The notes beneath the pieces are model-generated. The model had not been told where the DNA came from. It did no database searches and saw only the letters and a list, made by a program, of their open reading frames with translations. Positions 1 through 7,039 of a stretch of 64,000 nt of DNA are shown here, in pieces; the stretch's first letter is position 1, and the number at the start of each line of letters is the position of its first letter. Source of the DNA: Octopus vulgaris (taxonomy: Eukaryota); assembly GCA_951406725.2 (NCBI GenBank), contig OX597828.1:34596001-34660000 (forward strand). Direction: 5' to 3'. The position numbers were made by a program, and so were the translations under genes.

Positions 1-425
1 ACAACTACACTCTCACTCTCTCTCTGTCTCCATCTCTCACACACACATGCAACGAGGCGTACATCGTTTACAACCCGTTTATCACTTTTTTCTTGCGTCT
101 TTTACTTGTTCCAGTCAGTAGACTGCGACCATTCTGGAGCACGAGGAACGGTTCTCACTGTGAGATTTAATCTTGGAAAAGAGCCAAGAGACTTTGTTTT
201 TGTTAAACACGCAACATACTGCAAATAACGTCATCAAACAATCAAACAGATGTTTCGATATAATTTCGATTCCTCAGTTACAGACACTGCCTTTGTCGTT
301 TTGAATTACAATATATATATATATATAACGGGAAGCTTTATGAAACTAGACAAAAGACGAAGGCAGGTGGAAAACAAACAAACAATTGTATTAGTATGGC
401 GCTCAGGAAATATAAATAAAACAAG

Positions 426-463
426 TCTTTAACGTTTCGAGCCTACGCTTTTCAACAGAAAGA
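426..463 (-). ncRNA. Minimal type I hammerhead-like motif in the PLE pLTR (variant core CUGUUGA)
   Basis: Minus strand reads TCTTT-CTGTTGA-A-AAGC gtag GCTC-GAAA-C-GTT-AAAGA: stem I TCTTT/AAAGA, stem II, and a palindromic ACGT stem III. Confidence 0.75.
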
Positions 464-635
464 TACACAGAGAGAAAAAAAACACAGAAAGAAGGAGAGA
501 AAAAAATGCGTGCAGTAACTAACGAATCAACATGGCGATCTGATTTCGGCCAGAGGTCAAAGATCAAACATGAGACGCGAGAGCGAAATAAGGGGAGATA
601 ATAGGGATGATAATAGGGTTGAATGACCCTAGGAT

Positions 636-860
636 AGGTCTGGACAGGCGTATGTATGGGGTTGGTGTATGTATTAGTATGTATTAGTATGTATTAGTAC
701 GTATTAGTATGTATAAGTGTGTGTGTGTGTGTATGAGAGAGTATAAGTGCGTATGAGGGGTCTGGACGTGTGTATGTATAGGGTTGGTGTATGTATTAGT
801 ATGTATTAGTATGTATTAGTACGTATTAGTATGTATTAGTTGGTGTATGTATTAGTATGG
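636..860. repeat. (GTATGTATTA)n 10-mer repeats within a ~120-bp tandem duplication in the PLE 3' UTR
   Basis: GGTCTGGAC...GGGGTTGGTGTATGTATTAGTATGTATTAG occurs at about 636-715 and about 758-840. Confidence 0.8.
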
Positions 861-3800
861 CACATCATATATGATGTGATGTGTAAAGTCGTGTGGTGTA
901 GTGAGGAGAAGAGGGGGAGGGGGAGAAGAGGGGGAGAGAAGGGGAGGGGAAGGAGAGGGGGAAGAGGAGAGGAGGGGGGAGAGAAAGGAGGGGGAGGAAG
1001 GAGGAAAGGGGGGAGGAAGGAGGAAAGAGGGGGAGGGGGAGAGAGAAGCGGAGTGAGGGAACAGAGGGAAGAGGGAAGGAGGGAGGGAGAAAGAGGGAAG
1101 AAGGGAAGGGGAGTAGGGGTGAAAGGATGAAGGACTGAAGAAGTAGGGGTCGGGGGGAAGGATAGGTGAGGAGGGGGAGAGGGGGTTAGATGAGGAGGGG
1201 GAGAGTTGAGACCAAATGGCGTATAAGAGCGAAGAGAGAAGATTAATTCCTGTTCACGGCGCAAACGGGAATCCGGATGGCCTCTGTGTAAGGACAAACC
1301 GAACACAGATAGGTGTTGCAAGGAGTGATCGGTGGAGCGGAAATGGCGTGAGACCGGTGTGTCGTTCGCAAGGTGGATGTCACGAAGGTGTTCCGCGAAC
1401 CGGTCAGCCAAGCGGCGTCCCGTTTGTCCGATGTACAAGGAATTGCAGAGAGAGCAAGAGACGCAATAGATAATATTGCTGGAGGTGCAGGTGAAGGAGT
1501 GGATGATGGGATAGGGTCGATGGTGGGTGCTAGTGAGGCGGGTGGTGTTGGAGAGGTAAGGGCAAGTGCGGCAACGTGGGCGGGAGCAGGGGAACGAGCC
1601 GGGTTGGGAGGTAGGGTCAGGGAAGGAGCTATGGACCAAAAGGTCTCGAAGGTTGTGGGCTCGTTTGAAAGAGGGGAGGGGTCGGTTAGGGAAGAGGTGT
1701 GAAGTGGACGGGTCGGACTGGAGATGACGGAAAGCTCGAAGAATGGTGCGTTGGAGACGTAGGGTCGTGGGGTGGTAAGTGAGGGGAAAAGGGAGGCGGG
1801 AGACTACAGGGCGGGTTCGGGGAGAGAGAGCAGATACACGGTCCACGGACCGTGCTCTGGCAAGGGTGGTGTGGATAGTGGTGAGGGGGTATCCACGTAG
1901 GGTGAAGTGGTGAGCCATACGTTGAGACTGAGTCTCAAAGTCATGGTCGTCACTACAGAGCCTACGTAGACGGAGGAATTGGGAATAGGGGATGGAAAGC
2001 TTGGTGTGTTCTGGGTGGGAGGAAGAGAAGTTGAGGTATGAGTGTGAGTCTGTGTGTTTGTAGTGAATGGAGGTGGTAAGAGTGGAGTGAAGAATGCTAA
2101 CCGAAATGTCGAGGAAGGAGACAGAGGTGTTGGAGATAGTGGAAGTGAAGTGGAGGGCTGGTTGGAAAGATTGGACGAAAGAGAGGAAGGAATCTAGATG
2201 TTCGCGGGAGAGTGAGGGGGCACCGATAATGTCGTCAATGTAACGACCATATAGTTCAGGAGTGGGACCAGTGAAATTAGAGAATATTTGGGCCTCAACA
2301 TAGCCAACGAACAGGTTCGCATAGTTGGGGCCCATTCGCGTTCCCATGGCCACTCCCGAGATCTGATGGTAGAACTCGCCCGCGAACGAGAAGCAGTTCA
2401 GAGTAAGGACAAGTTCGGCCAGACGAATGAGTGTGGAGGTGTCAGGTACAGGGTTAGAGCGGAGGTCAAGAAAGTGTCGAAGGGCCTGCAGTCCTTCGTG
2501 GTGAGGGATAACAGTATAGAGGCTTTGGATGTCCATAGTAAAAAGGATTTTGGAGGAGCCGGGAGGAAAGGAGAAAGAGTTGAAAAGCCGGAGAGCATGG
2601 TTGGTATCGTGGATGTGGGAGGGAAGAGATGCCACTAGGGGGACAAGGACACGGTCGAGGTATTTAGAGATGAGCTCCGTGGGGCAGTTACAGGCGGAGA
2701 CGATGGGGCGGCCAGGGTTGTTGGGTTTGTGGATTTTGGGGAGGAAGTAAATGGTGGGGGTACGTGGGGTTCGCACAATTAGGTTGGATGCGGTGCGGGG
2801 GAGACGGGAGGACGAGATGAGGTCGCGGACAGTAGAGGATACCGTCTGTTGGTAGCTACGTGTGGGGTTAGAGGGCAGAGGGGAATAGAAGGAGGTGTCA
2901 TTGAGTTGGCGGAAAGCCTCGGCCCTATAGAGGTCCGCGCGCCACACCACTACAGCTCCACCCTTGTCAGCCGGTTTGATGATAATGTCAGCGCGCCGTT
3001 GGAGGGAACGAAGAGCCAAGAGCTCAGCCGGGGAGATGTTGAGGCGGCGTTGGCGAAGTTGGCGAAGTTGAACCGCTCCAATGCACGCTGACAAGCGCCC
3101 GCGAAAAGATCCACTGCTAGGATCTGGCCAGGGGCAGGCGTCCACGGGGATGGTCGGCGGCCCAGGCCAGTGAAGCAATACTCTTCGTTGGGTGTGGGTG
3201 GCGAGTCGTGGTAATGCGCACTCAACCGGACACGGCGCACAAAGCTGTGGACATCAACTCGCGTCTGGAATTCCTTACAGGATGGAGTGAGGGGGATGAA
3301 ACGCAGACCCCTACCAAGGACGGAGCGTTCAGCCGCAGAGAGGGGAAGATCGGGGGGAATGGTAACAACAGACGGAAGTGGAGAAGGGGTGGGTGGAATA
3401 GAAGTAGGAGGGGTGGTAGGTCTCGTGGAGGTCTGAGGGGGAGGGATTGGGGAGGTGTGTGGGGGTGGTTGGGGGGGCAGTAGGGTTAGGTGTAGGTGGA
3501 TGGAGCCTATCGGGAGGGGAGAAGGGGTTGTAGGGAGGGGCAGTGGGGTTAGGTGTGGGTGGATGGAGCCTATCGGGAGGGGAGAAGGGTGGTGGAGGAG
3601 TTGGGGTAGTGGCGTCGGGTAGGGTGGAATGGAAGAGTGATTGGAGTTTACGAAGTTTGGTATCAGAAAGAAATTGATGGAAGAGTTGATTCAAATGGAT
3701 AATGAAGCGTAGCGTGTTTGGCGCATAGAGAGGCGGCAGAGAGGAGAAGAAGGTGGAGAAAGCAGGAGGAAGAAGGCGGTTGATGGCATGTAGTTTAGAG

Positions 3801-4090
3801 AGATTGGAGCGAATGGTGGCCCGCATAAGGCGGTAAGATGTGGTGCGGAGTATGGGTAAGATGGAAGAATCCGAGTGGAGAGCAGGGTGGAAGTGGAGGC
3901 GGAAACCTTTAGGGATGAGTCGGTGATGTAGGCAGCGGCTTAGGAAAGAGACATGGCTAGAGAAGCGGGTTTTTTTTAAAAGAAGTAGAGAGAGATTAAC
4001 GGACGGCTGAAGGCAATATACAGGAAGAGAACGGAGATGATCCTTCAAACGGTGATGGAGGGTGAGGAGGTAGGACCTAGGATCCGGCAT
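836..4090 (-). pseudogene. PLE polyprotein (N-terminal domain, reverse transcriptase, Cys linker, GIY-YIG endonuclease) split by two frameshifts
   Basis: Motifs in order: LSRCLHHRLIPKGFRL; VLGRGLRFIP (middle frame); IIIKPADKGGAVVV (DKG); YFLPKIHKPNNPGRPIVS; GVAMGTRMGPNYANLF; RYIDD; CSRPRCRTC linker; NIIYCVSCSLCNSLYIGQTGRRLADRFAEH...PFGLN. Frames change at about 3400-3480 and about 3065. Confidence 0.92.
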
Positions 4091-4291
4091 GATGGGATAG
4101 CGGAAAAAAACAAACGTTCGAAAAAACAAAAAAAACAAAAAACAAAAAATTATCGTATGAAAAAAATAGAAAAAAAGGATAGCGAAAAAAGGGGAAAAAA
4201 CAAACGTTCAAAAAAACAAAAAAATAATAATCGTATGAAAAAACTAGATAAGTAAGCGATAGGGGCAGAAAAGACGGGGCAAACGGAAAAG

Positions 4292-5525: not shown

Positions 5526-6097
5526 ACACACACATGTATGAATATATGCACGTATGCATATGGGAAAATGTAACATCATAATTTTTGTTGTTGTTGTTGT
5601 TATTCAGCAGATGACTCAACGTTGTTATTGCCTGTCACTAAAGAGAGCCATCTTTCCTGGTTGGTTGCTAGCACTTCCTCTTTTACAGAAATCGGAAGAA
5701 TACGGAGCAGCACAAGACACCATTAACATCTATAAACTATCTTTTTCTCTTTCTTTTCTCTTTCTTTTTCAATACAGTTTTTATCGAAGTCCACCACCAC
5801 CACCACCACCATCACTACCACACCGGATGCGTATTTGCTATTGTGTCAGTTGACAAATAAAGATGTCAATACAAAAAGTAGCTGCTTTCCTGGCCCTGGC
5901 AAACTTCCATTACGATCAAGTGACGACAGATCAGTGAACGGGACCAGTTTATGTCGTAACGGAAATATCCAGCATGCATGCGCTGTTCGCCAAATTACGT
6001 AAAGGTATCTCCATATGAACGACTTCGAGGCTTCAGTGATTATTAACTCATCCATGATATTTGCAAGACACATATACGCACACATGCATACATACAT

Positions 6098-6523
6098 AGG
6101 CGCAGGAGTGGCTGTGTGGTAAGTAGCTTGTTTACCAACTACATGGTTCCGGGTTCAGTCCCACTGCGTGGCACCTTGGGCAAGTGTCTTCTACTATAGC
6201 CTCGGGCCGACCAAAGCCTTGTGAGTGGATTTGGTAGACGGAAACTGAAAGAAGCCTGTCGTATATATGTATATATATATATATATATATGTGTGTGTGC
6301 GTGCGTGTATGTTTGTGTGTCTGTGTTTGTTCCCCTAGCATTGCTTGACAACCGATGCTGGTGTGTTTATGTCCCCGTCACTTAGCGGTTCGGCAAAAAG
6401 AGACCGATAGAATAAGTACTGGGCTTACAAAGAATAAGTCTCGGGGTCGAGTTGCTCGATTAAAGGCGATGCCCCAGCATGGCCGCAGTCAAAATGACTG
6501 AAACAAGTAAAAGAGAAAAGAGA
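6098..6523 (+). mobile_element. tRNA-derived CORE-type SINE, here called family A (octopus OR-like), full-length copy
   Basis: A-box TGGCTGTGTGG and B-box GGTTCAGTCCC; CORE-like CCTTGGGCAAGTG; internal (TA/TG)n; tail ending GACTGAAACAAGTAAAAGAG. About 20 copies or fragments occur in the window. Confidence 0.88.
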
Positions 6524-6680
6524 GTATACATGCATACATGCATACATGCATACATACATACATACATACATACATACATACATACATACATACATACATA
6601 CATACATACACCATATTTTTACTAATAGAAATATCATTATTTCTAATTCTCTCTAAAAGAGACTACGGCAGCGGTACTGG

Positions 6681-6985
6681 ATATTAATAGTTATCGCCGA
6701 GCTAACATGACAGTCCAGAAAAATAGGACGAATGCTGCCGTCAGCAGCGACGCCTGCTGGATTCGGCTACTCCACATTGATAAGAGGCAAACACCTCGAA
6801 ACTAGTCTGTGGGTGCCAGACCAGCAAGGGGAAGCTGCTGACTTCTCCAGTTTGAAGGTTATAATGAACACAGGATTGTGTATCACATAGCTAGCTAGAG
6901 GCGATGGCCTCTTAGAGCTAATCAACGGTAGCATTCGTCCTATTTATCTGGACTGCCAAGTTAGCTTGGCGATAACTGTTGATAT
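6681..6985 (+). mobile_element. Fold-back mini-element with 61-nt inverted arms enclosing a hammerhead
   Basis: Arms 6681-6741 and 6925-6985 match at 54 of 61 positions; a hammerhead motif lies inside. Confidence 0.75.
6740..6842 (+). ncRNA. Type I hammerhead ribozyme, U3-A8 variant, with extended stem I
   Basis: CCACA-TTGATAA-GAGG caaaca CCTC-GAAA-C TA GTC-TGTGG (6772-6812). Stem I continues through GGC/GCC, TGCTGG/CCAGCA and GTCAGCAGC/GCTGCTGAC. Confidence 0.82.
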
Positions 6986-7039
6986 AGTTTTACTAATGTT
7001 TTATGTGTATAGCTACGCATGTGTAGTCAAACAATTCAA

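Follow-up and report, generated by a model that had tools for sequence, protein, structure and literature searches.

A hammerhead-bearing repeat of the retrozyme type in Octopus vulgaris and the Penelope-like scars of its insertions

Is a short stretch of octopus DNA that carries a complete hammerhead ribozyme motif between long complementary arms the template of an RNA active today, or the remnant of something that was once inserted there? The segment in question (305 nt, 6681–6985) lies in a 64,000-nt stretch of the Octopus vulgaris genome, referred to hereafter as the window, and a preliminary description took it for a fully structured unit closed by a 61-bp helix, and for the best candidate in the window for an active retrozyme or viroid-like RNA. 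We suggest a different reading, to which we give a probability of about 0.75: the locus would be a truncated, decayed insertion of a non-coding ~360-nt repeat of the non-LTR- The locus is composed of the following features.

6617–6626, no strand: left target-site duplication, 10 bp, exact
6624–6680, minus: inverted ~57-nt tail, the element's long 3' end (from family mapping; absent from the preliminary description)
6681–6741, minus: final 61 nt of the monomer as an inverted, 5'-truncated copy; forms the left arm of the 'closing helix'
6740–6985, plus: main piece of 246 nt (0.68 of the 361-nt monomer), with the short 3' end as its terminus
6740–6842, plus: extended stem I rod bearing the hammerhead (outer helix 90% paired, 4 two-sided changes)
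6767–6770, plus: CUAC bulge in stem I, predicted partner of loop II (from conservation and alignment to Rfam Hammerhead_HH9)
6772–6812, plus: type I hammerhead, U3 at 6777, A8 at 6782, predicted cleavage after 6807
6772–6776/6808–6812, plus: stem I of the hammerhead (from sequence)
6777–6783, plus: hammerhead core U3-A9 (from sequence)
6784–6787/6794–6797, plus: stem II, with loop CAAACA (from sequence)
6798–6800, plus: GAA of the hammerhead (from sequence)
6801–6806, plus: stem III palindrome ACUAGU (from sequence)
6805–6807, plus: GUC cleavage site (predicted)
6898–6911, plus: GAGGC/GCCTC hairpin; families B and C have a hairpin at the equivalent place
6937–6953, plus: hairpin earlier called a ghost stem II, retained as a hairpin and not as a hammerhead
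6988–6997, no strand: right target-site duplication, 10 bp, exact

All core residues of a type I hammerhead are present in the window (U3-A8 as a Watson-Crick 3-8 pair, G12 A13 A14, A15.1-U16.1, and H17), and every sequence statement made earlier about a complete motif with a compensated U3-A8 core could be verified. A type I hammerhead scan over both strands of the 64-kb window returned this locus as its single match, and no minus-strand hammerhead was seen in it. U3-A8 is a known natural covariant of the core, active in vitro (PMC3088659), and PMC4209133 reports it in Cercyon PLEs of Schistosoma, where ~1,300 minimal hammerheads carry it. The proposed target duplication also holds: TTTTACTAAT occurs in the window at 6617 and 6988 only, and 6613–6626 and 6984–6997 are identical at 13 of 14 positions. 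The element starts at ~6624, not at 6681, because 6624–6680 is its inverted 57-nt tail. The 'ghost' of a hammerhead stem II described in the arms is a plain hairpin read antisense, lacking a preceding CUGANGA, and the GAA that follows it is missing in families B and C. Microsatellites dominated a repeat scan of the window. Directly upstream of the insertion, at 6088–6520, lies an abundant SINE-like repeat followed by (TACA)n; the window holds at least 7 copies of it.

A search of the genome (2.8 Gb, 227 contigs) with the window unit gave 1,871 candidates, and all 40 that were scored matched. Nearly all genome matches start at query position 60, and the left arm therefore lies outside the shared sequence. 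Comparison of flanks gave a monomer of 361 nt, the end of which leads back into its start; across families it ranges from 351 to 361 nt, with a GC content of 0.40–0.46 and no ORF of its own. The retrozyme-like size claimed earlier is supported. The repeat is dispersed, ~360 nt long, and arranged head to tail; this locus is one copy among thousands of relatives, and the 305-nt unit is not the biological unit. Four related families were distinguished, A (the window's own), B (2,888 candidates), C (2,498), and D (1,958); A and B are 81% identical, while C and D show 57–61% identity to A and B and to each other. After removal of 31 redundant loci, 150 loci of families A, B, and C were mapped, with main pieces of 0.5–2.6 units, exceeding one unit in 84/150 loci (loci were selected by similarity or motif, which biases the shares for length and for spanning the cleavage site upward). 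AT-rich flanks common to three loci (L006, L019, and L020) were considered as an element body and rejected, being a segmental duplication. At L119 (1143–1749) short microhomology connects a piece of family A with pieces of family C, which suggests template switching or recombination between two retrozyme families, and at L099 (5576–5810) the monomer has a fifth relative, more distant than the others, present as a 5'-truncated copy between TA repeats (profile E 3.5e-15).

Within this family the window copy is unremarkable. It lacks ~56 nt of the monomer, its minus-strand part (6624–6741) consists of 61 nt and the 57-nt tail, and its main piece differs from the family A majority at 15/246 sites. 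It holds one ribozyme, where two hammerheads in tandem would mark an active retrozyme copy. With 0.68 of a unit, one ribozyme, and 6% decay it is thus a poor candidate for activity and most likely dead, contrary to its first ranking as the best candidate, and we found nothing in support of autonomous viroid-like replication.

Selection is better sought in the family than in the copy. At loci not chosen by a hammerhead pattern, the 3/8 pair is U-A in 48/50 family A pieces and 35/35 family B pieces, and C-G in 28/30 family C pieces; family D has mostly U-A with a few C-A copies. A loose motif matched the genome 2,698 times, compared with 15 for a reversed control, and a hand count among 100 matches listed gave 62 U-A, 25 C-G, 9 C-A, and 4 U-G. 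The preliminary description had staked its reading on homologues keeping U3-A8 or C3-G8, and in this comparative respect they bear it out. In 17 aligned copies, two-sided changes occurred in 17 of 33 pairs, including 4/5 stem I and 3/4 stem II pairs, and the covariation score was 0.43, against 0.21 in shuffled and ≤0.09 in slid alignments, a signal that reflects about four lineages and not 17 independent events. The C, U, and C of the CUAC bulge are invariant in the same copies and its A is nearly so. We conclude that the ribozyme is, on comparative grounds, under selection at the family level. Rfam returned no hammerhead for the window copy, either at the gathering score or at E≤10; a family C copy aligns over the whole Hammerhead_HH9 model (RF02275; 34.4 bits, E 1.3e-7, gathering score 52), and through this copy the CUAC bulge aligns to the bulge of the model. 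The family C copy thus resembles Hammerhead_HH9 throughout, bulge and loop II included, but differs in a stem III reduced to a palindrome and in a score below gathering.

Two side observations concern the core. Family D, the oldest, includes copies with an unpaired C3/A8 (L231, L238, L239, and L243), possibly intermediates between the two cores. Hammerhead-like motifs with an extra base after A9 and a CAA loop were matched 44 times, compared with 8 in the control (e.g. G000:C10:78052503).

Stem III has a constraint of its own. With the middle two bases left free in the search, they were self-complementary in 99 of the first 100 matches listed, and the versions TA, AT, GC, and CG all occur; stem III appears, then, to stay palindromic in four versions, as a dimer-type hammerhead requires. 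In the predicted monomer fold stem III is absent: the hammerhead-shaped monomer reaches −3.0 kcal/mol, compared with a minimum of −8.6 kcal/mol, while the self-duplex of the palindrome is predicted at −4.8 kcal/mol. Since a single molecule disfavours the hammerhead fold in these models, they point to cleavage by paired hammerheads.

The insertions bear a second kind of record. An inverted piece is present in 70 of the 150 loci, always head to head with the main piece, and absent from the other 80; the inverted pieces are 5'-truncated and ~40 to 350 nt long, and family D has them in 13/20 loci. The 3' ends fall into two groups ~57 nt apart (66 nt in family C). Insertions with a single orientation use the long end 38 times, the short end 39 times, and other ends 3 times, while inverted insertions combine one long and one short end in 47 of the 56 that could be classified (p=2.6e-7; 14/70 were unclassified, and the left end of the window copy was classed by hand). 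(TA)4 is found at the junction in 94/150 loci, compared with 197/1,930 control stretches. Junction-anchored repeats of at least 9 nt occur in 11/150 loci, one of them a simple-repeat artefact, compared with 7/2,981 mismatched pairs; the remaining 10 loci, the window locus among them with its 10 bp, have target duplications of 9–14 bp. This is similar to what is described for PLEs, the insertions of which show partial tandems, an inverted 5'-truncated copy, a 30–40-bp tail at one end, and a bias for (TA)n (PMC8557442), and to purified PLE protein, which nicks and extends both strands and starts at two internal sites that bound the tail (PMC11167929). The retrozyme tail of 57–66 nt is longer than the usual 30–40 bp. 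We suggest that the repeat insertions carry a PLE footprint and that the repeat is likely copied by Penelope-like retrotransposons.

What would the protein have copied? The cleavage site is spanned in 148/152 loci (a share inflated by the way loci were chosen), whereas of 211 piece 5' ends no more than 5 come within 5 nt of it; because 5' ends are rarely found there and loci span the site, cleaved linear monomers were not the main template. Either circles or uncleaved multimers would fit. We favour circles, since no array in 150 loci is longer than 2.6 units and two tandem hammerheads occur in 7/152 family loci only. In the sequence of events that we propose, two hammerheads would associate by way of their palindromic stem III, with cleavage following GUC, as the covariation suggests; the monomer would be ligated to a circle, so that cDNA could pass the cleavage site and exceed one unit. 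The insertion scars would then reflect a PLE protein that nicks AT-rich DNA on both strands and begins reverse transcription, on each strand, at one of two fixed internal positions separated by ~57 nt, after which the two 5'-truncated cDNAs join head to head. At the window locus the outcome would be 246 nt on the plus strand and 61 nt with the tail on the minus strand. In four runs guessed to be RNA, from three organism labels, contigs contain the monomer together with the joint between its end and its start, although genomic tandems give the same joint and contigs cannot reveal circles; to the dip in depth near the ribozyme in these uncontrolled data we attach no meaning.

The alternative in which the circle is unneeded, and the PLE copies an uncleaved multimeric transcript of tandem copies with the hammerhead acting elsewhere in the cycle or only with help from a protein, is unlikely. 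In PMC11167929, hammerhead cleavage is dispensable for the purified PLE, uncleaved RNA is the main template, and PAc hammerhead mutants still insert in vitro; the seven loci with two tandem hammerheads are possible sources of such a transcript. A point against the main reading is that predicted Xenopus retrozyme dimers were uncleaved in 8/9 cases and cleaved in 1/9 in vitro (10.64898/2026.07.22.740005). Against the multimer alternative, arrays are short in the mapped loci and no run of three hammerheads was found among the first 100 matches listed in each of two motif searches, although long arrays may have gone unseen. Linear copying with 5' truncation would, moreover, shrink arrays with time, yet the succession from A to B persisted.

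A GIY-YIG search of the genome gave 6,136 candidates and 148 matches, many of them in 781-aa open frames; these include domains for RT and GIY-YIG as well as a cysteine linker of the Neptune type (the clade was assigned from the linker motif described in PMC8557442). Of the 44 loci fetched, 23 (21 of the 42 distinct ones) have a minimal U3-A8 hammerhead with an ACAUGU palindrome, 63–74 nt from a 3' end that is itself followed by (TA)n or a ~35-nt tail, and one hammerhead-bearing copy has a 766-bp inverted 5' piece. No PLE with the repeat as its pseudo-LTR (pLTR) was found by blastn and a family profile in the 44 fetched loci of the 6,136 candidates and the window PLE, where copies of the repeat were present as two separate insertions only, in L079 and L099. 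No RT/EN frame joined to family copies was found by tblastn, and no sequence similarity of the monomer to the pLTRs of the fetched Neptune-type families. A Neptune-type PLE is the likely helper, as a candidate only.

Several of these elements merit description in their own right. L091–L104 (e.g. L091:2245–4587) form a young autonomous Neptune-type family with intact 781-aa frames and an overlapping upstream frame; its 3' region has tandem CCAAT/TGACGTC-like repeats, a minimal U3-A8 hammerhead, and an optional ~35-nt tail. Other Neptune-type families have different minimal hammerhead-like motifs (L076 and L082, 3' of the ORF; L099:4800–4840), among which one is U3-A8 and has the palindrome ACCGGU, while another is altered at position 4. 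The window itself holds a decayed Neptune-like PLE (380–4207, minus strand), with an 805-aa stop-to-stop frame at 836–3253 in which RT and GIY-YIG-like parts can be seen. The element also has a frame upstream of this one and, near 430–470, a degenerate motif like a minimal hammerhead; it has no similarity to the retrozyme.

A closer relationship can be imagined, in which the retrozyme parasitises Neptune with a ribozyme matched to that of its host: the youngest retrozyme family would have converged on the U3-A8 core and ACAUGU palindrome of the young autonomous element, the hammerheads would cleave as heterodimers, and the one-long-one-short rule would reflect a dimeric RT-endonuclease copying circular RNA from two fixed sites, one per target strand. 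We regard this as a doubtful conjecture with long odds. The possibility that the repeat is instead the solo pLTR of an autonomous PLE missed by the searches appears quite improbable. Every insertion scar is of the PLE type, and most PLE hammerheads are single truncated copies (PMC4209133), as this reading would have it; but in many loci the 3' end leads directly into the monomer start with no ORF between, tblastn found no RT/EN attached to family copies, and the hammerhead, with its bulge and a stem II of 4 bp, is canonical and unlike the minimal one of PLEs.

Returning to the inserted retrozyme-type repeat, its anatomy accounts for the conspicuous helix of the window. The two 61-nt arms differ at 7 sites, giving 4 G-U, 1 A-C, and 2 A-A, and 6 of the 7 are rare alleles. 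Across 62 arm pairs, mismatches show no G-U bias (144 G-U against 139 A-C, p=0.81). Arm divergence is 8.6% in family A, 2.9% in B, and 6.8% in C, and median divergence from the majority is 4.9%, 1.7%, and 5.1%, respectively; arm divergence appears to track family age. Since the inverted pieces vary in length and the mismatches are without G-U bias, the helix is not supported as a selected closure of an RNA. The '61-bp closing helix' is an insertion by-product, the overlap of two cDNAs. The predicted fold of the 305-nt unit lies far below shuffles (z=−17.6), and stem III is unformed in the predicted monomer. Much of the score is due to the inverted repeat, because the minus strand gives z=−15.1 and the fold energy rises to −97 kcal/mol, from −169, once the left arm is removed. 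When folded as circles, seven natural monomers gave z of −3.8 to −9.6 for plus and −4.5 to −8.1 for minus strands (25 shuffles each), and the two strands of the monomer fold about equally well. The original proposal that the 305-nt stretch is itself an active, selected, fully paired retrozyme or viroid-like RNA has its stable fold and its intact core residues in its favour; it is very improbable given that the arm length is private to the window insertion, that the arm differences are as described, and that its one hammerhead has an unfavourable monomer fold. A non-autonomous DNA transposon (MITE) with 61-bp terminal inverted repeats, which the inverted arms and target duplication of the window locus would suggest, is refuted for practical purposes by the family anatomy (80/150 loci without an inverted arm, variable arm lengths, and 5'-truncated tandem copies). 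The locus does not match a plant LTR retrozyme (defined by type III hammerheads in LTRs, a 4-bp target duplication, and PBS/PPT) in its type I topology, its 10-bp duplication, and its lack of an LTR pair.

Among known systems, the octopus repeat comes closest to metazoan non-LTR retrozymes, described in PMC7229834 from coral, mussel (350–390 bp), and axolotl (330/350 bp). It has these traits of that class: a head-to-tail monomer within 150–450 bp, one type I hammerhead, no ORF, GC <50%, and target duplications >4 bp. The likeness extends to a canonical type I hammerhead, a monomer of 351–361 nt with a GC content of 40–46%, longer target duplications, a self-paired circle (here a predicted fold), and, as in axolotl HHR_Amex1, a weak palindromic stem III. 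Unlike those retrozymes as described there, most octopus families have the U3-A8 core, and in place of long arrays their copies are mostly dispersed insertions of 0.5–2.6 units that show inverted pieces and two kinds of 3' end. With PLE insertions and their pLTRs, as described in PMC8557442, PMC4209133, and PMC11167929, the repeat shares the inverted 5'-truncated copy, partial tandems, a tail at one end, two RT starts, and AT-rich targets, but differs in having no ORF, a canonical and not a minimal hammerhead, and a tail of 57–66 nt. A PLE origin of retrozymes is treated in bioRxiv 10.64898/2026.07.22.740005, and further literature is found in PMC7151607 and PMC6765202. Judged from listings, the literature searched, Repbase and subscription papers excluded, describes neither a retrozyme from a cephalopod nor one with the U3-A8 core; the supplements of PMC7229834 and PMC4209133 may list cephalopod cases.

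The window copy would thus be an ordinary fossil of a large retrozyme-type family, although its hammerhead motif is itself real. Hammerhead counts made with C3-G8 descriptors are too low, because thousands of canonical U3-A8 hammerheads are missed by Rfam. The mobilisation of non-LTR retrozymes by PLEs has so far rested on co-occurrence and pLTR similarity; the octopus insertions bear a countable PLE footprint, namely an inverted copy and two fixed starts, one per end. With this footprint and young, intact Neptune-type ORFs in one genome, the helper and circle hypotheses become testable there. The core variant and each of the insertion features were known separately; what makes the mobilisation model testable is that they occur together in a repeat that encodes no protein and has intact Neptune-type elements alongside it.
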